Positions 2,545 to 43,552 of a stretch of DNA of 64,000 nucleotides are shown piece after piece. The notes under the pieces were generated by a model. That model worked only from the letters and a program-made list of their open reading frames with translations. It was not told the DNA's origin and made no database searches. Position 1 is the stretch's first letter, and every line of letters starts with the position of its first letter. Position numbers and translations under genes: made by a program. The stretch comes from an uncultured Parachlamydiaceae bacterium (lineage in GTDB: Bacteria; Chlamydiota; Chlamydiia; Chlamydiales; Parachlamydiaceae): contig CAVVXH010000010.1 in assembly GCA_963752155.1 (NCBI GenBank), positions 256,001-320,000 of the forward strand, in the 5' to 3' direction.

Positions 2545-2560
2545 GACGTCTGTAATGAAG

Positions 2561-2887
2561 AACGATAAGAACGATAGGAACGATAAGAACGATAGGAACG
2601 ATAAGAACGATAAGAACGATAAAAATTATAATTGAACATTATCATGATGAACTATCTGATTAAACTGTGTAAACTAAAATTCAAATCATTTATAATAAAT
2701 TGTTGCATTTTAGTTTGCATAGTTTAATTTACACTTCCAAGAGAAACAATAAAAAAGTTTTTATCATCTTCTTATCGTTTTTATCGTTTTTATCGTTTTT
2801 ATCGTTCTTATCGTTTTTATCGTTTTTATCGTTTTTATCGTTTTTATCGTTCTTATCGTTCTTATCGTTCTTATCGTTTTTATCGTT
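2561..2887. repeat. Empty inverted 9-mer array pair, AACGAT family: (AACGATARR)x7 at 2561-2623 and reverse complement x13 at 2771-2887
   Basis: Units read directly; the arms face each other around an AT-rich 147-bp spacer. Confidence 0.95.
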
Positions 2888-3093
2888 GCATCGTGGCAAG
2901 GGGACAAAATATAAATTATCAAGCCCAAATCGAAGCTGAAGATCAACTTGAAATAGCTCCAGATTTAAAAAAAGCAATTAGTTGTTGCAACATATAAACT
3001 GTAAATGATAATATCTAAAATGCGTGATGAATAGAAAATCAAAATATTCAAGATAATATATTAAAATAATTTATTTATACTATGGAGGACAAT

Positions 3094-3565: not shown

Positions 3566-3701
3566 GGCTATGTTCACCTGTACACGAGAAACTTTATTCC
3601 TCCTCTGTGTTCTCTGTGATCTCTGTGGTAAAAAAAAATCTACCACAGAGATCACAGAGAACACAGAGGAGGAATAATTGAGCGAAGAAGTGAACAAGGC
3701 T
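3566..3701. mobile_element. 136-bp MITE with internal CACAGAG(A) inverted 9-mer repeats (copy 1)
   Basis: Ends GGCTATGTTCAC / GTGAACAAGGCT; 8-bp flanks CGGATGCT / TGGATGCT; near-identical inverted copy at 46831-46966. Confidence 0.85.
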
Positions 3702-17359: not shown

Positions 17360-18349
17360 CTATACCAATAAAAAGTAAGCTGTAATTAAAAGATTCAACG
17401 TAGCAATGGGGGTAAGTACTTTCCATCCAAAGCTCATTAGCTGGTTGTAGCGCAAACGGGCCATAGTTGCGCGTACCCACATAAATATAAAGACTAAAAT
17501 AGCAACTTTTAAAATAAACCAAACGAATGGGGTATCTGTTGGCCCGTACCAGCCACCTAAAAATAAGGTTGTTGCAATAGAACAAACAGCTAGGATGTTG
17601 ATGTACTCGGCAAGGAAAAAGCTTGCAAATCTCATTCCACCATATTCTGTATGGTAGCCTCCGGTGAGTTCCTGTTCCGATTCTGGAAGATCGAAAGGAG
17701 CGCGGTTTGTTTCTGCAAAAGCAGTTATGAAATAGATGATGAAGCTGATGGGATTGGTCCAAATGAACCAATGATTTTGCTGAGCCTTGACTATTTCCGG
17801 TAAGCTTAAGGAGTTTGCAGCGATGACTACGGTGATGATCGATAATCCCATGGGAATTTCATAGCTAATGAGTTGTGCTGTGCTGCGCAGTCCTCCAAGT
17901 AGAGAGTAGCGGTTGTTAGATGACCAGCCGGCTAAGACGATTCCATAAACTGCGAGTGAAGAGAGTGCGAGAAGCACGAGGATTCCGGAGTTAAGATCAG
18001 CAATATACAGTTTGACTGTGCGGCCAGCTATTTCGATGGTATCTCCGAAGGGGATGAGGATGAAAGCCATCAGGGCAGTAAAAACAGAAATGGCTGGAGC
18101 TAGGATATAAGTAAATTTATCGACATTTTCTGGGCAAAAACTTTCTTTGCTAAGGAGTTTAAGGCCATCGGCAATAGGCTGTAGAAGGCCAAAGGGTCCT
18201 ACTCGATTAGGGCCAAGCCTTAGTTGGACTCTGGCCATAATCACCCGTTCGCAAAAGGTCATATAGGCAGCCGCCCCCATAAGGACCAAAACGAGAAGGA
18301 TGCTTTTGATAAGTACTTCGATTAAATCGCCTAACACGGGATACCTCAT
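17360..18349 (-). CDS. nuoH: NADH-quinone oxidoreductase subunit H
   Basis: RLGPNRVGPFGLLQPIADGLK and ETNRAPFDLPESEQEL motifs. Confidence 0.96.
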   Translation of the reverse strand: MRYPVLGDLIEVLIKSILLVLVLMGAAAYMTFCERVIMARVQLRLGPNRVGPFGLLQPIADGLKLLSKESFCPENVDKFTYILAPAISVFTALMAFILIPFGDTIEIAGRTVKLYIADLNSGILVLLALSSLAVYGIVLAGWSSNNRYSLLGGLRSTAQLISYEIPMGLSIITVVIAANSLSLPEIVKAQQNHWFIWTNPISFIIYFITAFAETNRAPFDLPESEQELTGGYHTEYGGMRFASFFLAEYINILAVCSIATTLFLGGWYGPTDTPFVWFILKVAILVFIFMWVRATMARLRYNQLMSFGWKVLTPIATLNLLITAYFLLV

Positions 18350-18440
18350 TATCCACTTTTATTCATTATTTTGGACGTTAGCGGAAAAGCTTTTGTCTGT
18401 AAATAAAAAAATTCAAAGGGGTGGGGTATTGTGAAATGTA

Positions 18441-18573
18441 GCAAGGACGACAAGGACGGCAAGGACAACAAGCAAGGACAAGCAACAAAGATATAAGATA
18501 ATACCATTTCTCGTTTATTTTATATGTCCTTGCTTGCCGTCCTTGTTGTCCTTTTCGTCCTTGCTGTCCTTGT
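18441..18573. repeat. Empty inverted 9-mer array pair, CAAGGAC family (copy 1)
   Basis: (RCAAGGACR)x~4 then ~40-bp spacer then reverse complement x~5. Confidence 0.9.
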
Positions 18574-20216
18574 TAGTTCTTTTCTTTAATACGATTAAGT
18601 TCTCTATAGAACGCATCAAGTTCGACATCTTCATCGTTTTCAGAAGCTGGAAATTGCTTTGAGATTAATTGTTCTCTCTTAGAATTTAGATAATTCAGAG
18701 CGTTTTTAATAGGGTCTTTTACACTATCAATTTCATTATTAACGTTCCAAGAATCACAATAAAGCTCTATGCTTCCATTAGCTAAAATATATAAATCAGT
18801 AATTTCTTTGGGTAGCCGAGTTAAAAAGCCTGGAGATTGATGAGTCCATTGATCCATCAAATCTAAGAGTTCTGCATCCAAAGCATGCAATTCCTCAATG
18901 CTGCAACCACTCTTAGAATTGGTTAATTCGACGATTTGATGCGCGATGATGCGAAATTGAGATTTAATTTCTTCTAGATGATCCTCCTTTTCAAGATAAG
19001 CACGCATTTCTGGAATTTCAGTATCAACTTCCTCAATAGAAGAATCGTTATTAAGTTTATCTTGAAAATCGGTATTTAACCAATCATTAAAACTTTCATC
19101 ATTAAAACTTTCATCATCTTCAAAAAAGGAGTCTGATTCATAGCCATCCTCTAAAATTCCCTCGTTTGAATTTTCGATCTCGCAAGCCGGAGATAGATGT
19201 TTATTTTCTAAAGACTGATTTTTTTCATAGTTCGCCATGAATTGTTGTGCTTTTTTGAAGTATTTCTGGGCTTTAATTAAATCATGATCCCTATCAGGCT
19301 GATTGCTTTCTGTAACTGCAAAAGAAGGATTTAATTGCTGAAGGACTTCTTCGGCATCAGAACGAAATTTATCAGAAAGTGCATCGGTTTCTTGGTTTAT
19401 ATTTTCGACATCTGATTGAGCAATATCTTTAAGTGTAGTAACTATATTGCAATCTAGGTACGGATTCAGGCTCTCGTGTGATGGTTTGATATTTATTTTG
19501 GGCTGAATTTGTGGGCGTTCGTACACCTGAAACATTTCAATTTTAAGTAAATTTTCTTCCGTAATTCTTTTTAAGTTAGACTCATTTTTAGAAGATAATG
19601 GATTCTTTATTTCATTTATTTGTTGTCCCATTAGATCTACTTCGATTTTAAGTAATTCTAACTTTTCTTGTTGTTGATTTGCAGATAAGTTAATGGACGC
19701 ATAAAGAGTATCAATTGCTTCTCCTTGTTTATAAGCTTCTTCTAACAAGTTTTCAACAAATTTATTTTGAAAGAATAGATCAATTTCATTTTCATTTTCT
19801 TTAGAAATTTTTAGAAATGCTGCAATCTTTTCACTAATAGCAGAGGAGGGGAAATTTTTTTGATCGATGTTTTTTGAGAAAACATAATCGATTTTGGTCA
19901 TTTTGAAAGGAATAGATTTGAGTTGTTGCCAGATAGAGTTCAGTTCATTTGTGGCCTCAGGATCGTTTTTTTTAATGAGGGCTTTAATTTTTGAGCTTAG
20001 GATGAATTGATTTTGAAGTAAATTTTCTATAACCGAAGGTAATTTCCTCGCATTGATTTGTGAAGTTGTTTGGGGGTCCGCTTCTGATGTCTGTTTTGAG
20101 TCCAGAACCAAAGCAATCTCCTTTATTTTGCGAGTTTGCACATTGTCAATTCTTATAGAAAAAAAATTTTGATATAAATTTTGGAAAAAATTTAAAGAAA
20201 AAAATGAATAGATCAT
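18573..20216 (-). CDS. Hypothetical acidic coiled-coil protein
   Basis: 547-aa AT-rich ORF; GAGG RBS; E/D/N/K-rich; no motif recognised. Confidence 0.7.
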   Translation of the reverse strand: MIYSFFSLNFFQNLYQNFFSIRIDNVQTRKIKEIALVLDSKQTSEADPQTTSQINARKLPSVIENLLQNQFILSSKIKALIKKNDPEATNELNSIWQQLKSIPFKMTKIDYVFSKNIDQKNFPSSAISEKIAAFLKISKENENEIDLFFQNKFVENLLEEAYKQGEAIDTLYASINLSANQQQEKLELLKIEVDLMGQQINEIKNPLSSKNESNLKRITEENLLKIEMFQVYERPQIQPKINIKPSHESLNPYLDCNIVTTLKDIAQSDVENINQETDALSDKFRSDAEEVLQQLNPSFAVTESNQPDRDHDLIKAQKYFKKAQQFMANYEKNQSLENKHLSPACEIENSNEGILEDGYESDSFFEDDESFNDESFNDWLNTDFQDKLNNDSSIEEVDTEIPEMRAYLEKEDHLEEIKSQFRIIAHQIVELTNSKSGCSIEELHALDAELLDLMDQWTHQSPGFLTRLPKEITDLYILANGSIELYCDSWNVNNEIDSVKDPIKNALNYLNSKREQLISKQFPASENDEDVELDAFYRELNRIKEKN

Positions 20217-20526
20217 ATAAACACCTCGATTTATTAAATTACATGTAAAAATATTTTTTTTATATTTTAATATTTTTGTTTTTTTATAGGCAATTAAATT
20301 CTATTGTACCTCTTGCGTTTTTCTATTGTCAAGTCAAAAACAGTATTTTAGTGAGAAATTAGATATTAGATAAAATAGAAATGAACTGCAATAAGAGACA
20401 TTGTTTGAATCAATGCGTATTTCTGGTATTTCTGGCAACTTCTCATATAAGTGGACGTTGCATTTTTTTGTAGATGAAACGTTCATCTGGAAATCGTTAT
20501 ATTAGATTGAGTATGTGGACGTAATC

Positions 20527-20629
20527 AACGATGCAAACGATACAACGATAAAAACGATAAAAACGATATAAACGATAAGAACGATAGGAATGATAGGAAC
20601 GATAGGAACGATACAACGATAAAAACGCT
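20527..20629. repeat. AACGAT-family array downstream of the GxxExxY gene (~11 units)
   Basis: aacgatgca aacgatac aacgataaa aacgataaa aacgatata aacgataag aacgatagg ... Confidence 0.92.
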
Positions 20630-20673
20630 TTTCAAGATTATTTACAAAAGTCTAGACACTCCCACTCCCTACG

Positions 20674-21099
20674 TCACAATTTCTCATAGACTTCTTCTAG
20701 ACTAGTCGAAAAGTCCTCATTGCTCTGCAGTCTTTTCCATTCCAATTTCCTATGTCGGAAATTTACTAACAAACCGATTTGAAGTTGAGAAGCTTTTAAA
20801 TAGTTGAATAATTGTGCCTGATGTTCGCGAACCAAACTTTCACAACATTTTAATTCCACGATCACGGTTTTTCCTACAACCAGATCTGCGTGATATCGAC
20901 CGATTACTTTGCCTCTAAACATTACTTCAAAAGGTCGTTCTACTTCGACCTCTAGGCCCATCTGTCTCATCGCAATCAATAGCGCATTTTTGTAGACTTT
21001 TTCCAGAAATCCTGGCCCAAGCTCCTTCATGACCTCAAAACAACAGTTCAGAATGGTGCCCGTCAATTCATGATGAGGTAATTTTTTGTCTTCTTCCAT
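20674..21099 (-). CDS. GxxExxY protein (PD-(D/E)xK nuclease-like)
   Basis: ELGPGFLEKVY, ADLVV..VIVELK and QLFNYLKAS..GLLVNF; ATG at 21099 is part of the last repeat unit (alternative start 21120). Confidence 0.92.
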   Translation of the reverse strand: MEEDKKLPHHELTGTILNCCFEVMKELGPGFLEKVYKNALLIAMRQMGLEVEVERPFEVMFRGKVIGRYHADLVVGKTVIVELKCCESLVREHQAQLFNYLKASQLQIGLLVNFRHRKLEWKRLQSNEDFSTSLEEVYEKL

Positions 21100-21358
21100 C
21101 GTTCTTATCGTTCCTATCATTCTTATCGTTTTTATCGTTTTTATCGTTCTTATCGTTCTTATCGTTTATATCGTTTTTATCGTTTTTATCGTTCTTATCG
21201 TTCTTATCGTTCTTATCGTTTTTATCGTTTTTATCGTTTTTATCGTTCTTATCGTTCTTATCGTTCTTATCGTTTTTATCGTTTTTATCGTTTTTATCGT
21301 TCTTATCGTTCTTATCGTTTATATCGTTTTTATCGTTCCTATCGTTCTTATCGTTTAT
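21098..21358. repeat. AACGAT-family array upstream of the GxxExxY gene (29 x 9 bp, ATCGTTnnT)
   Basis: 29 consecutive units with variants ATCGTT-CTT/TTT/TAT/CCT; inverted relative to 20527-20629. Confidence 0.97.
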
Positions 21359-21478
21359 ACCATTGATCTATAGTTAGTAGCAACAGTCTGAACGGTAGCT
21401 CACTTCACTTTTTCTAGAGCTGTCAAAGGCCTTCACCACTTCACTCCCATAATTAGAAGTTGCTATTGCTATCTCTTG

Positions 21479-23167
21479 CTATCTCTTCCTATCTCTGTTG
21501 AGAAAAATAAATGGAAACAAAACCCCAAGACAACAAAGCAAAAGAATTGGACTATTTCCAAATCGACTATAAATTGTGGGGTAATGGTATCTCGGAACTT
21601 CGACGTATAGAGCATCGGCAATCCATTGTGATTCCGGCGATGTATCTCCTAACATCGCAATGATTTGCCCAAAACTGTCGCAGGCTGTCGTAATTCCTGT
21701 ATTGCAAGCTCGAACAATAGGGACTCCATTTTCAACGCTACGCAATCTAGCAAGATCGAAATGTTGTTTAGGTAGATTGGAATTGGGGTACCATACATCG
21801 CTCGAAAGATTGACAAGCAGCTCTGCTCCGTTTTGACGGCATTCTCGCATGATATTTCCAAAGGTCTCTTCATAGCAAATAGAAACCCCAAAAGGAATAG
21901 TACTTCCATGGAAAACTGTCGCTTCGGTTCCGAAAGTTAAAGATCCTTGAATTCCATATTTTGCTGCCAGGTTGTGGAAGATTGAAAAAGGGATATATTC
22001 AGCCATCGGAAGTAAGATCCGTTTAGCATAGTGTGGAGAGGCAGCATAAACAGACTCATCTGTTGAATTGGGTTTAAAATGGATCGCTGCACTATAATGT
22101 TGTGCCTTGGCATTTTCATCTTGAATAACATTTTCTAGACCAGCGATGACTTCAGACTGAAAGATATTGGCAACGGCTTGTGCCCAGAAAGCATTATTAA
22201 CGAACCATCTATTTCCTTGATTTGAGATAGATTGACGAGCAAATGGCTCTTGTAGGGGAGGAAACTTTTGTTTAACAGATTCACCGTAAGTTGCGGTAAT
22301 CGCTTTTTCTACCTCTTCATAGGGATAGATAGGTAAATAGGTTGCAAAAGGAACGACGTATTCGGGCAAAGCAATCAGGTCAATATTCTTTTCACGATAA
22401 GGGTGTAAAATTTTAAAAATTTGAGCCCACTCGTCTATGACGTAATCGACATACTGCGATCTCGTATCAAAGACTAGAGCCTCTTCCGCTGGAAAAGCTG
22501 TTTGCACTAACAGAGTTCTATAAGGATTCGACGGTTCTTGAATGGGGTAATGAAAATGAAATATTCCAAATAGATAAGGGAATGCAGCGAGCGATATCCA
22601 TGCGACTAAGTTCTTTTTACTTTGGTAAAACCAAGCTCTTAATCCCATCATATTTACAAGAATAACCCAGAAAGAAAGTAAATAGATTCCTCCAATGGAA
22701 GCTAATTGCATTGAATAAAGATGATTGGTTAGGGCAATTCCTGCGGGATTCCAGGTATATCCTGAGAGAAAATAGAGTCGACTCCATTCAAACAAAGTCC
22801 ACAAAGAGGCTAAAGCGATCGCTTGAGAGATTTTTTGAAGTCGTTCAGGTTTAATAAAAATAGACAACACCCCCCATTGCATTCCCCATAAAATGCAAAA
22901 CAACGCATAGACAAAATAGATATAATTGAAAGGGTGATACAGTAGCCATTTAAGTTGTATCGCTTGTACCGCGAGGAACCATAGTGTCCCTATTAAAAAG
23001 CGCTGTTTTGCTGAAGTAATTTCAAGCAAGACTCTGCACATCAGTGCATAGCCGCACAGAGCTGATAGAGTGCTCAACCAAGGAATGCCGGCAGGCTGCC
23101 CATAACTCACAATGACGAAGGAAATAAAGAGCAAAAGGAGCGCTCGGATCATGCCTAATGTTGCCAA
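21479..23167 (-). CDS. lnt: Apolipoprotein N-acyltransferase
   Basis: EWSR..SGYTWN; ALPE; KRILLPMAEYIP; SICYE; RSVENGVPIVRACNTG. Confidence 0.92.
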   Translation of the reverse strand: MATLGMIRALLLLFISFVIVSYGQPAGIPWLSTLSALCGYALMCRVLLEITSAKQRFLIGTLWFLAVQAIQLKWLLYHPFNYIYFVYALFCILWGMQWGVLSIFIKPERLQKISQAIALASLWTLFEWSRLYFLSGYTWNPAGIALTNHLYSMQLASIGGIYLLSFWVILVNMMGLRAWFYQSKKNLVAWISLAAFPYLFGIFHFHYPIQEPSNPYRTLLVQTAFPAEEALVFDTRSQYVDYVIDEWAQIFKILHPYREKNIDLIALPEYVVPFATYLPIYPYEEVEKAITATYGESVKQKFPPLQEPFARQSISNQGNRWFVNNAFWAQAVANIFQSEVIAGLENVIQDENAKAQHYSAAIHFKPNSTDESVYAASPHYAKRILLPMAEYIPFSIFHNLAAKYGIQGSLTFGTEATVFHGSTIPFGVSICYEETFGNIMRECRQNGAELLVNLSSDVWYPNSNLPKQHFDLARLRSVENGVPIVRACNTGITTACDSFGQIIAMLGDTSPESQWIADALYVEVPRYHYPTIYSRFGNSPILLLCCLGVLFPFIFLNRDRKR

Positions 23168-25668
23168 AAAATATAAGGGAGTTCTAGAGGTGTTAAATTC
23201 GGCGCATTTGGAACTATACGAGGCGTATAGTAACTAATCGGATAATCAGCAGGGACTTCTGCTTGAAAAATATGCATGTTGGAAGGGTTTATGGATTTCC
23301 CTATTTCTTTCATAATGTAAATTGATGGCATAGAACCTCCATTTTTATAAAGTTCGACTCTTATATCATTAGGATCTATTTTATCTAAAAAGACTTCAAT
23401 ATTAAATCGATAAATGTCACCAAGGTTCTCTGTGCTTATCTTACCAAAGTATAAATTATTCCAGCTTTCATTGATAGTCTTAATTTGTTTTGTAACATTT
23501 CCACTTAGTCGATTTTGATAAAGCTGAGCTGCAGGAAGATAGTATTTTTCAGTATACTCACGTACACAACGATTACTTGAAAAATAGGGGGTAAGTTCGG
23601 CCATGCTAGATCGGATACGTTTAACCCAATCAACTGGGATGTTTTCCCCATTTCGCGTATAAAAAGAGGGGATGACTTCGTTCTCTAACAAAGTGTAAAG
23701 GGCATCTGCATCTTGGGCATCGCGAGCTTGTTCATCGATTCCCTTCCCATTGTGAGATTGGCCGATTGCCCAACCGACTTGAGGTGAATAGGCTTCAGCC
23801 CACCAGCCGTCAGGGATAGATAAATTGAGCCCTCCATTGACAAGAACTTTCATTCCACTTGTTCCGCAAGCTTCCCAAGGGCGTAGAGGGGTATTAATCC
23901 AGACGTCGACTCCTTGCACTAATTCTTTGGACAAGAGCATGTTGTAATCGCTCAAGAAAATAACATGAGGGGATACTTCAGGCCGTTTAATAAATTCGGA
24001 CCATTGTCGAATGAGGGCTTGGCCAGGCAGATCAGCAGGGTGAGCTTTACCGGCAATCAAAAGTTGGATTGGGTGTTTAGAGTTATTGAGGAGGGCAATA
24101 AAGCGTTCAGGATTGTGCAATAATAAATTGGGACGTTTGTAAGTTGCAAAACGTCTTGCAAAACCTAGTGTCAAAGTATTGGGATCGAAAATTTTCTTGG
24201 CCTTCTCTATTTCTTCTGCGGTTGCACCAGCGATTGCCAGTTGAGTCGGAAGACGGCGTCTTGTAAAGTCTACAAGATTTTGACGCAGGAGTGAACGCAT
24301 ATTCCAAATGGGAGCATCGGGAACGGCATTCATCTTTTTTTCTAAACATTTAGTATCTTGCATCCACCGTTCTTTTCCACATGCATTAGTCCATAATTCA
24401 TCAGAGTGAATAGAGTCCCAGCTAGGCATGTGTACGCCATTGGTGATGTGTCCAATAGGGACTTCTTCTTCAGGCCAACGAGGGAATAAAGGAGCAAACA
24501 AACGTTTACTGACTTTTTCGTGCAAACCACTAACAGCATTGGCAAAAGCGCTTCCACGCATCGCTAAATAAGCCATATTGAAGTATTCTTTATCGTTGTT
24601 AGGATCTATCCTGCCGAGAGCTAACAATTCTTTTAAGGATATTTTTAGAAGATTTTGAGTATAGTAATTTAGGAATTTTTCAATGAGTTCCGGACTGAAG
24701 CGGTCAAAACCAGCTTCAACAGCTGTGTGAGTAGTGAAAAGATTACCTGAACGTGTGATTTGAAGGGCTGTATGAAAGTCCACTTGATGCTCGATCATAT
24801 AAGAACGTGCACGTTCAAGTATTGCAAAAGCTGCATGACCTTCATTGAGATGACAAACTGCAGGTGAGAGATTTAAGGCTTCAAGAAGCCTCCATCCTCC
24901 TAAGCCAAGAATGATTTCTTGTCTAAGACGAAGCTCGGCATCACCTCCATAAAGTTCACTTGTAATGGCCCTATAGGCTGGAAAATTTGCGGGATCATTG
25001 GTGTCGAGGAGAAGCAATTTGACTCTGCCTACGATCACTTGCCATGTTCTTACCCAGAGGGTATATCCGGGGAGTGCAATTTCGAGGCGGAGCCATTCGC
25101 CATCCGATTTGCGTAAGGGTGTGATGGGCATTTGGCCAGGGTCATTATAAGGATAAAAAGCTTGCTGGGCTCCGTGGTTATCCAAAACTTGCCTAAAATA
25201 ACCTTGTTGATAGAGCAATCCGATCGCTACAACAGGAAGACCTAAATCGCTAGCAGCTTTTAATTGATCTCCGGCGACATTACCTAGACCCCCGGAATAG
25301 ATAGGAAGAGCTTCGGTAAGCATATATTCCATGCTGAAATAGGCGACACAGTTTAATGGGCTATTTTGATGCGTTTCGCTAAACCAGCTGGGTTGTGACT
25401 TTTCTAGACGGTTATTTTCGACCAGATCCTGAGCAAGAGTATGAAAATGGGGATCTGACAATAATTTTTCAAGCTTTTCTCGCGAAGCGACTTGCAAAAC
25501 ATCTTTAGGATTGCGAGTAAGTTTCCACAATTCTGGATTGAGTTTTTCCCATAACGCATCTGAACTACGATTCCAGGACCAATGAAGATTTTCGGTAAGT
25601 TGTTTCAAGAGCTCGTAGCCGAGGATATTGCAGTGATCTTCGATAGGTGATTGAGTTTTCGTCTCCAT
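23155..25668 (-). CDS. glgP: Alpha-glucan (glycogen) phosphorylase
   Basis: YFSMEY, YSGGLG, HLNEGH, ITNGVH, GFARRFATYKR and EACGTSGMK motifs. Confidence 0.95.
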   Translation of the reverse strand: METKTQSPIEDHCNILGYELLKQLTENLHWSWNRSSDALWEKLNPELWKLTRNPKDVLQVASREKLEKLLSDPHFHTLAQDLVENNRLEKSQPSWFSETHQNSPLNCVAYFSMEYMLTEALPIYSGGLGNVAGDQLKAASDLGLPVVAIGLLYQQGYFRQVLDNHGAQQAFYPYNDPGQMPITPLRKSDGEWLRLEIALPGYTLWVRTWQVIVGRVKLLLLDTNDPANFPAYRAITSELYGGDAELRLRQEIILGLGGWRLLEALNLSPAVCHLNEGHAAFAILERARSYMIEHQVDFHTALQITRSGNLFTTHTAVEAGFDRFSPELIEKFLNYYTQNLLKISLKELLALGRIDPNNDKEYFNMAYLAMRGSAFANAVSGLHEKVSKRLFAPLFPRWPEEEVPIGHITNGVHMPSWDSIHSDELWTNACGKERWMQDTKCLEKKMNAVPDAPIWNMRSLLRQNLVDFTRRRLPTQLAIAGATAEEIEKAKKIFDPNTLTLGFARRFATYKRPNLLLHNPERFIALLNNSKHPIQLLIAGKAHPADLPGQALIRQWSEFIKRPEVSPHVIFLSDYNMLLSKELVQGVDVWINTPLRPWEACGTSGMKVLVNGGLNLSIPDGWWAEAYSPQVGWAIGQSHNGKGIDEQARDAQDADALYTLLENEVIPSFYTRNGENIPVDWVKRIRSSMAELTPYFSSNRCVREYTEKYYLPAAQLYQNRLSGNVTKQIKTINESWNNLYFGKISTENLGDIYRFNIEVFLDKIDPNDIRVELYKNGGSMPSIYIMKEIGKSINPSNMHIFQAEVPADYPISYYTPRIVPNAPNLTPLELPYIFWQH

Positions 25669-43322: not shown

Positions 43323-43386
43323 ATTTTTTTTTATCCTAATTTGTAACAGTAGCTTTGTCTAAGAGATTATTTATGTCAAGTGCTGA

Positions 43387-43552
43387 GCAAGGACAGCAAG
43401 CAAGGACAGCAAGGACGGCAAGGACAGCAAGGACGACAAGGACAGCAAGGACGACAAGGACAGCAACACCATAAAATGTTATTGGAGATACTCTCTAATT
43501 GTCCTTGTCTTGTCGTCCTTGCTGTCCTTGTCGTCCTTGCTGACGTCCTTGC
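43387..43552. repeat. Empty inverted 9-mer array pair, CAAGGAC family (copy 2)
   Basis: (RCAAGGACR)x~8, ~35-bp spacer, reverse complement x~5. Confidence 0.92.

Follow-up and report, generated by a model that had tools for sequence, protein, structure and literature searches.

The locus reported here, a nuclease-like gene set between inverted arrays of a short word, is best introduced through the described systems that it most resembles. Foldback (FB) elements of Drosophila have long inverted arms of short tandem repeats, and the length of these arms varies between copies and between the arms of one copy; most copies are noncoding, and a few have a central coding region. The intervening sequences (IVS) in the 23S rRNA of Coxiella and Leptospira bear an open reading frame (ORF). 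The ends of Ac/Ds, En/Spm and Tn7 consist of subterminal arrays of transposase-binding words, with miniature inverted-repeat transposable elements (MITEs) as derivatives. In two papers by Bertels and Rainey (PMC3116915, PMC3337134), doublets of REP sequences (repetitive extragenic palindromes), the REPINs, are linked to REP-associated tyrosine transposases (RAYTs). Our locus lies in a 64,000-nucleotide stretch of DNA from an uncultured Parachlamydiaceae bacterium, the window of this report (positions 256001–320000 of contig C10, genome G000 in our numbering; the source genome is 3.13 Mb in 22 contigs, ~38% G+C, and its homologues are named Parachlamydiaceae and Chlamydiales, in keeping with a chlamydia-like bacterium). 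There, a GxxExxY gene is bracketed by inward-facing arrays of a 9-mer built on the word AACGAT. Our best reading is that this cassette is the one intact member here of a widespread class of small cassettes, each made of a minimal PD-(D/E)xK gene and inverted arrays of a clade-specific word of 6–7 bases. We put a probability of roughly 0.55 on it being a transposase-free selfish cassette whose predicted nuclease reads arrays of its own word, and whose arms have grown into minisatellites in this genome.

The family of the encoded protein (PF13366/TIGR04256) is a large orphan family, and a consistent array context gives a testable hypothesis for what its proteins recognise. The 2012 survey of the nuclease superfamily gives PDDEXK_3 as a family of unknown function with multiple transfers (PMC3424549), and in a passage of PMC8934634 GxxExxY appears as an annotation mention only. 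No description of the gene–array association was found in the literature searched, a search with subscription journals outside its coverage.

The earlier note on this DNA had described a lone GxxExxY gene between inverted arrays of about 11 and 29 9-mer units, and Tandem Repeats Finder (TRF) together with ORF and profile matches confirmed this arrangement. At 20527–20627 of the window, TRF reported a period of 9 with 11.4 copies (82% matches, score 97, unit AACGATAAA). At 21098–21355 it reported a period of 9 with 28.7 copies (91% matches, score 390, unit ATCGTTCTT, the reverse complement of the unit at 20527–20627), and also a higher-order period of 45 bases. The note was right about both arrays and about an ATG in the last upstream unit, but it had the sides exchanged: the gene is on the minus strand, which puts the array of 29 units upstream of it and that of 11 units downstream. 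Read along the gene strand, the cassette consists of the following parts, with the array sequence written as (AACGATAAG)n.

21355..21386, minus strand: outer B-end, adjoining the upstream array on its outside, with a degenerate extra word CAATGGTA (in other copies CAACGGTA)
21098..21355, minus strand: upstream arm of 28.7 units, which read AAGAACGAT / AAAAACGAT and variants on the gene strand; the last unit gives the start codon
20674..21099, minus strand: GxxExxY / PDDEXK_3 gene of 141 amino acids, with Pfam and NCBIfam matches
20628..20673, minus strand: linker of 46 bases from the stop codon to the downstream arm, without conservation in other copies
20527..20627, minus strand: downstream arm, in which the upstream word recurs as its reverse complement over 11.4 units; the outermost units are the 8-mers ACGATGCA and ACGATACA
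20513..20527, minus strand: outer A-end of 15 bases, ATGTGGACGTAATCA (in other copies ATGTAGACGTAATCA)

The two ends of the window copy differ from each other. The A-end is common to the corresponding end of many other loci in the genome, and the B-end sequence, with a recurrent length of ~30–43 bases, borders arrays at many others. Near-identical cassettes on soil contigs run on into the B-end (loose ends at 21370/21374), and past 20512 they continue into the same further flank as other copies of the window genome. When the cassette centre was compared with the genome by blastn, homology in other loci began around the stop codon, at about query base 37–43. The junction of arm and gene, on the gene strand, reads ...GATAAGAACG-ATG-GAAGAA, with the ATG (21099–21097) inside the last upstream unit. 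A second in-frame ATG at 21120 comes from a variant unit, AATGAT; homologues begin at the MEEDKK position instead.

The protein matched PF13366 (PDDEXK_3; E = 1.2e-39, 135.7 bits against a cut-off of 22), the only Pfam family matched, and TIGR04256 (GxxExxY; E = 1e-40, 138.7 bits against a cut-off of 35). It keeps the predicted PD-(D/E)xK nuclease residues E33, D72, E82, K84, Q96 and Y100. In 93 sequences E33, Y36, D72, E82 and K84 were invariant, with G30 and Q96 at 90% or above, and in a 12-sequence alignment G30, E33, Y36, D72, E82, K84 and also Y100 were invariant. The AlphaFold (AF2) model was confident, with a predicted local distance difference test score (pLDDT) of 89.7, and showed a restriction-endonuclease-like fold. 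Foldseek matched it to Cas4 SSO0001 (4ic1; E = 4.6e-5), with Cas4 and lambda exonuclease matches from 5e-5 to 4e-4; further neighbours were LHK-Exo, the AdnAB nuclease domains and Hjc. By VIA-align the best matches were the BpuSI nuclease domain and Cas4 (both Z = 8.1) and a Spirosoma restriction-endonuclease-like protein, all at Z ~8 and rated ‘middling’ by the tool; the alignment to Cas4 4ic1 had a root-mean-square deviation of 3.1 over 98 residues. These matches are generic to the nuclease fold and not a specific assignment. A sequence search of solved structures returned Cas4 4ic1 alone (E = 0.43), and a homodimer prediction scored 0.00 against a mark of 0.42. The ratio of nonsynonymous to synonymous substitution rates (dN/dS) was 0.046–0.164 in five of eight comparisons; two others were saturated, and one involved a relative with an in-frame TGA. 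Judged by its codons, the gene is under purifying selection.

The cassette is part of a family that is dispersed over the genome, as the earlier note had proposed. The pattern AACGAT-N2-3-AACGAT-N2-3-AACGAT occurred 824 times, while its reversed, non-complemented control occurred 0 times, which excludes a chance origin. Period 9 was the commonest tandem period of the genome (619 of 2296 TRF rows), and arrays with an ACGAT core numbered 89, with 1146 units and 10,590 bases (0.34% of the genome) in 45 loci. Around 30 of these 45 loci are inward-facing pairs resembling the window cassette. Searches with tblastn and a hidden Markov model (HMM) found one full-length gene of the AACGAT clade, namely the window copy; by HMM, three full-length GxxExxY ORFs are present, and the window copy is the only one of that clade. 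Gene-derived DNA was found in 24 of the 45 loci, the window copy included, and four further fragments lay outside arrays. The relics were 78–96% identical to the intact gene (blastn) and shared breakpoints: at ~6 loci centre bases 43–150 were joined to 410–470, and at nine loci the relic ended at base 257. Such a census, with its shared breakpoints, is that expected for one autonomous element and its internally deleted, non-autonomous derivatives.

Each arm had its own order of unit variants and its own higher-order period; in one arm, for instance, a motif of two units recurs 10 times. Because the variant orders are not mirrored and the higher-order periods are separate, the arms expand independently, in the manner of minisatellites; the longest arms of the genome are minisatellites of up to 57 units. 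The idea that the two arms homogenise each other was dropped, there being no mirror symmetry of unit variants between them.

We then placed the association in a wider sample, by means of a profile scan of one genome per species, in which 543 of 600 candidate stretches were confirmed as relatives. From these we took the best 80 loci, which represent many phyla and include a few archaea, and 73 of them were testable; as controls, virtual genes matched in length were set into the flanks of these loci. A strict inverted bracket by TRF was present at 20/73 GxxExxY loci and 2/945 controls. A 6-mer with two or more copies upstream, and two or more copies of its reverse complement downstream, was present at 47/73 loci and 115/916 controls (Fisher p = 3e-22, kin not being independent); with at least three copies the counts were 17/73 and 3/916. 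The direct-orientation version of the two-copy test gave 22/73. Arrays had a density of 2.8 per kb close to the gene, compared with 0.58 per kb in other places. The enrichment of flanking inverted arrays that the earlier note had predicted for GxxExxY genes was thus observed by both the lenient and the strict comparison.

The repeated word tracks the protein clade, not the host phylum. We built a protein tree of 86 rows, 45 of which had a scorable word. The word classes needed 22 changes on this tree, the minimum possible being 19, and 0 of 300 shuffles fell below 30. Host phylum on the same tree also needed 22 changes, against a shuffle mean of 24.5. Members of a single CACAGAG-word clade come from Acidobacteriota, Chlorobiota, Lentisphaerota, Bacteroidota and Chloroflexota as well as from chlamydial relatives. 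The match also holds within the window genome, where two distant GxxExxY paralogues (on contigs C4 and C6) have CACAAAG words, one of them abutting its ATG. The expected covariation of repeat and protein clade is therefore seen both across hosts (22 word changes against at least 30 in shuffles) and among paralogues of one genome.

Among 31 related genomes, 17 held a GxxExxY match of some kind, and far fewer held the AACGAT clade. At these loci the gene was again bracketed by inverted arrays, whose words were different:

AACGATAT / TATCGTTA: relative at 79% identity
GATGATnnn / CATCCTGAT: relative at 60% identity
CACAGAG, CACAAAG or CGCAGAG types: relatives at 30–38% identity

The triple AACGAT pattern occurred 3–53 times in seven relatives and 0 times in the other 23, and the control pattern occurred 0 times in all. 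Because relatives hold 0–53 occurrences against 824, the scale of array expansion is peculiar to the window genome among the genomes searched. The element was not found beside lnt in two genomes of the same genus (G001 and G002). Their lnt neighbourhoods were considered as empty sites and rejected, since other neighbours stand there, synteny is broken and the sites are not clean.

This distribution bears on the possibility that the pair is domesticated, that is, that a single-copy nuclease and its arrays serve the host in genome structuring, in mRNA stability or termination, or as recombination hot spots, as argued for REPIN-RAYT. A single intact gene under purifying selection amid many gene-less arrays would fit such a role, and the census pattern is the same as that described for RAYTs and REPINs (PMC3116915, PMC3337134). 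A useful host function is harder to reconcile with the patchy presence of the gene among relatives, with the nearly random placement of host phylum on the protein tree, and with the repeated decay of the gene. We regard domestication as improbable.

A homologue search gave 1363 relatives of the AACGAT clade alone. In 80 metagenome loci of the clade (50–87% identity) we found a strict inverted pair at 39, an upstream array at 49 and a downstream array at 58. As identity fell, the word drifted from AACGAT to AATGAT and on to CAGGAT/GATATGCAG. The arms of metagenome loci and compact relatives have only 3–4 units, and in compact relatives short inverted ends of the TCAACGGTA type lie outside the words on both sides. 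Two loci (L178 and L179) share an identical gene and 49 bases upstream of it in two different left contexts. On a contig of 114 kb, L122 (2960–3760; 80% identity) holds three cassettes in tandem: the first is full, the second is gutted to ~25 bases of the gene’s 5′ end plus its 3′ end, and the third has AACGAT arms around other cargo, a 110-base insert with its own G+C-rich hairpin.

The GxxExxY gene of L163 (3001–3384; 73% identity) is conserved except for an in-frame TGA, which could mark a fresh pseudogene or recoding. Most close homologues (72–95% identity) are on contigs of ~1–3 kb, as expected if arrays break short-read assemblies, and metagenome surveys of the family will for that reason under-sample its flanks. 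The near-identical cassettes of soil contigs show far fewer units (joints skipping 124 and 235 bases), but they were not counted as arm-length polymorphism, because short-read contigs can collapse tandem repeats. Short contigs over parts of the gene also came from one sequencing run guessed to be RNA; as that run may be DNA, it was not taken as a sign of transcription.

The position of the start codon proved to be a conserved feature of the clade and not a peculiarity of the window copy. In most relatives the start codon is in, or directly after, the last word: 58 starts were determinable, and among them 25 read ‘AACG|ATG’ and 14 read ‘TGAT|ATG’. The earlier note had suggested that a read-through transcript pairs its two arrays and sequesters this codon. 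Folding of the 881-nt minus-strand RNA gave a minimum free energy (MFE) of −235.5 kcal/mol (z = −8.8, a value that none of 20 shuffles reached), so the long duplex is thermodynamically plausible. In the MFE structure, though, the partners of the 3′ array are the distal units of the 5′ array and not those at the ATG, and the ATG is not specifically buried.

The fold raises a further explanation, in which the arms act mainly in RNA. They would form a long stem with the ORF in its loop, and either host RNase III trims this stem or the stem gates translation of a nuclease that is aimed elsewhere, as in a toxin or defence role; in that case the arrays would serve regulation or insulation and would not be the substrate of the nuclease. 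The folding energy, the start codon embedded in the last word across the clade, and the setting of the cassette all speak for it. The cassette gene is co-oriented with its neighbours, lnt (21479–23167) upstream and a 547-amino-acid ORF (18573–20216) downstream. No sigma-70-like site was found on the gene strand between lnt and the gene, and a scan of the region for such sites gave 8 against 5.7 expected by chance. Any inverted repeat makes a stem, yet these arms are arrays of a short word whose core tracks the protein clade; besides this, the predicted pairing avoids the ATG region, the protein matched 0 families of PADLOC-DB 2.0 at E ≤ 0.01 and nothing in PHROGs, and an RNA role supplies no route by which gene-less copies spread. 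As the principal function of the arms we think it unlikely, but it can hold alongside a selfish cassette.

The selfish-cassette reading draws on several results taken together: inverted word arms and their enrichment across phyla, the word–clade match, the start codon at the last word, one intact gene among relics and gene-less copies, conserved nuclease residues and a nuclease-like fold, and purifying selection. It also draws on the patchy distribution, on the tandem full and gutted cassettes of L122, on the identical gene-plus-end in two left contexts, and on the lack of the element beside lnt in the two genomes of the same genus. The nuclease would recognise its own words and make its cut at the arms or close by, with the arms in duplex form or extruded as a hairpin or cruciform. 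Repair of the break, or strand transfer, might then copy the cassette or a gene-less derivative to a new place, often beside or inside existing arrays, and internal deletions would leave non-autonomous copies. In this genome each arm may have grown separately, by slippage or unequal exchange, into a minisatellite. Since its arms pair in RNA and it stands between two genes of its own orientation, the cassette probably also gives a transcript with a long stem, and this stem may limit harm to the neighbours.

Several results weigh against this scheme. We found neither an empty site nor a target-site duplication nor any insertion polymorphism for the cassette, and the relic identities of 78–96% give no sign of recent activity. 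The protein comes without a separate DNA-binding domain, and its structural matches (Z ~8) are generic. The lenient word test was failed by 26 of the 73 cross-phylum loci. The relics ending at base 257 lie within a larger palindromic composite, whose amplification by another agent may account for how many of them there are; empty copies of the composite were sought, but 8 of 8 occurrences of its marker were tied to AACGAT elements. Lastly, arrays occur where no cognate gene was found. Three relatives (G005, G009 and G018; completeness 86, 89 and 80%) hold triple AACGAT arrays, and a window-clade query found neither gene nor remnant in them. In the window genome itself two word families, AAGGAC with 54 loci and ACAGAG with 28, are without a cognate gene; these orphan families show that arrays persist with no resident cognate gene. 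The test put forward in the earlier note, whether the repeat is dispersed only where the gene is present, thus speaks partly against its interpretation, and that interpretation as a whole, a nuclease–repeat unit that would spread its own arrays, is supported in part: the dispersed family, the cross-phylum enrichment and the word–clade match agree with it, while arrays in genomes with no cognate gene found do not.

Orphan arrays are also what one would expect if the arrays were satellites or hairpin elements in their own right, multiplied through slippage or by some other enzyme of the genome (e.g. a RAYT/TIRYT transposase), with the gene as a trapped passenger. The independent expansion of the arms, each with its own variant order and higher-order periods, agrees with this, as do the relics within the larger palindromic composite. 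Trapping would not be expected to produce the cross-phylum enrichment (47/73 against 115/916), the match of word and protein across unrelated hosts, or the conserved way in which the last word is fused to the ATG, and we hold a passenger gene to be a poor explanation. Passenger and domesticated genes are both less likely than a selfish cassette.

If the selfish-cassette reading is extended to the family, GxxExxY proteins (~125–140 amino acids) would be the engines of transposase-free mobile cassettes across Bacteria and some Archaea, copying themselves and gene-less derivatives by way of their word arms. We offer this wider proposal tentatively, at somewhat short of an even chance. If true, the match of protein clade and word is a natural, evolvable code of protein–DNA recognition, and the window genome is an end state, with one surviving master gene and runaway minisatellite arms. 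The case points to DNA that moves or propagates itself without any transposase of the known classes, and it bears on the origin of bacterial minisatellites. The window offers itself as a test case: only one gene is intact, relics of it that can be dated lie at 23 other loci, gene-less copies are numerous and the arms are exceptionally long.

A second AACGAT pair was present in the window:

2558..2894, no strand assigned: inverted AACGAT pair of 7 + 14 units around a 153-base centre without gene-derived sequence

Its centre carries the ‘OUT’-type sequence of other gene-less copies, which is found outside the arrays at outward-facing pairs. Nine outward-facing AACGAT pairs in the genome share a conserved centre of ~111 bases (C7:60987–61320, C15:118959–119195, C17:108329–108583, C21:92522–92740 and five more), and they form part of a ~1-kb repeat in which a 32-base inverted sequence lies beyond the arrays. 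The two ends of the ~111-base centre are the outer flanks (B-end and A-end) of gene-bearing copies and resemble joined cassette ends. The centre could be a circle junction or a junction of tandem cassettes, and the tandem cassettes of L122 explain it equally well.

Other word families accompany the AACGAT arrays. The 9-mer CAAGGACnn (window 18442–18574 and 43386–43542; 54 loci genome-wide) forms 32 inward-facing pairs with centres of 16–100 bases and no gene, and Rfam returned only sub-threshold microRNA-like hits on the first of these hairpins (18442–18574). The two families are nested at C10:446775–447335, C2:28022–28498 and C1:54268–54943, where AACGAT arms are bordered on the outside by AAGGAC-type arrays of opposite polarity. 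A palindrome at window 3603–3668 represents a type of ~130 bases with three CTCTGTGnn, a loop of 16–18 bases and three CACAGAGnn, in outward-facing polarity. These palindromes are near-identical, with 18 paired copies genome-wide (e.g. C10:158811–158876), and the A-rich loop occurs in both orientations. Beside the cassette, the 547-amino-acid ORF (minus strand) is directly downstream, has no Pfam match and contains short acidic repeats (DESFNDESFND); upstream of it is an 11-of-12 sigma-70-like site at 20332–20303. On the other side a 10-mer, TTGCTATCTC, is repeated 3.1 times at window 21466–21496, overlapping the 3′ end of lnt and lying between lnt and the B-end.

We close by setting the cassette against the known systems. 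Like the subterminal-array transposons, it has multiple short inverted words, putatively binding sites, at both ends, and internally deleted derivatives that share breakpoints. It differs from these transposons, and from classical insertion sequences (IS) and MITEs, in that its single ORF matches only PDDEXK_3 and no known transposase class (DDE, HUH, serine or tyrosine). As for ends of the classical IS or MITE kind, compact relatives have inverted ends of the TCAACGGTA type, whereas the two ends of the window copy differ and no target duplication was found.

The small ORF in the loop of the long stem that the transcript can form is analogous to the 23S rRNA IVS. The cassette, however, lies between lnt and the 547-amino-acid ORF, its arms are word arrays, and its ORF is PDDEXK_3 and not S23p/PF05635. 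Rfam found no rRNA over 18000–23500, and a PF05635 search of the genome returned one weak, sub-threshold match only. With Cas4, RecB-family nucleases and lambda exonuclease the protein shares the fold and the motif set E...D...ExK...QxxxY. It differs from Cas4 as a 141-amino-acid protein without an Fe-S cluster or other extra domain, with marginal sequence similarity (profile E = 0.43) and in a context unrelated to CRISPR.

The inverted arms of short tandem repeats, variable in length, recall Foldback by analogy with that element as defined above. Foldback elements are eukaryotic and have unrelated proteins, whereas the cassette word matches the nuclease clade and compact relatives have 3–4 words per arm. 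The likeness to REPIN/RAYT is one of logic: a single gene flanked by its own inverted repeats, many gene-less copies that form hairpins, and repeat classes paired with gene clades. The enzyme of the cassette is a PD-(D/E)xK nuclease and not an HUH Y1 (IS200/IS605-like) transposase. Its arms are tandem, non-palindromic words of 6–7 bases, spaced 8–11 bases, where REPINs have REP palindromes, and only the two arrays together are inverted. Its intact gene is enclosed by the arms, and copies of the gene in a decayed state are common. Because enzyme fold and repeat design both differ, the cassette is not a member of the REPIN/RAYT system, though the logic of the two is alike.

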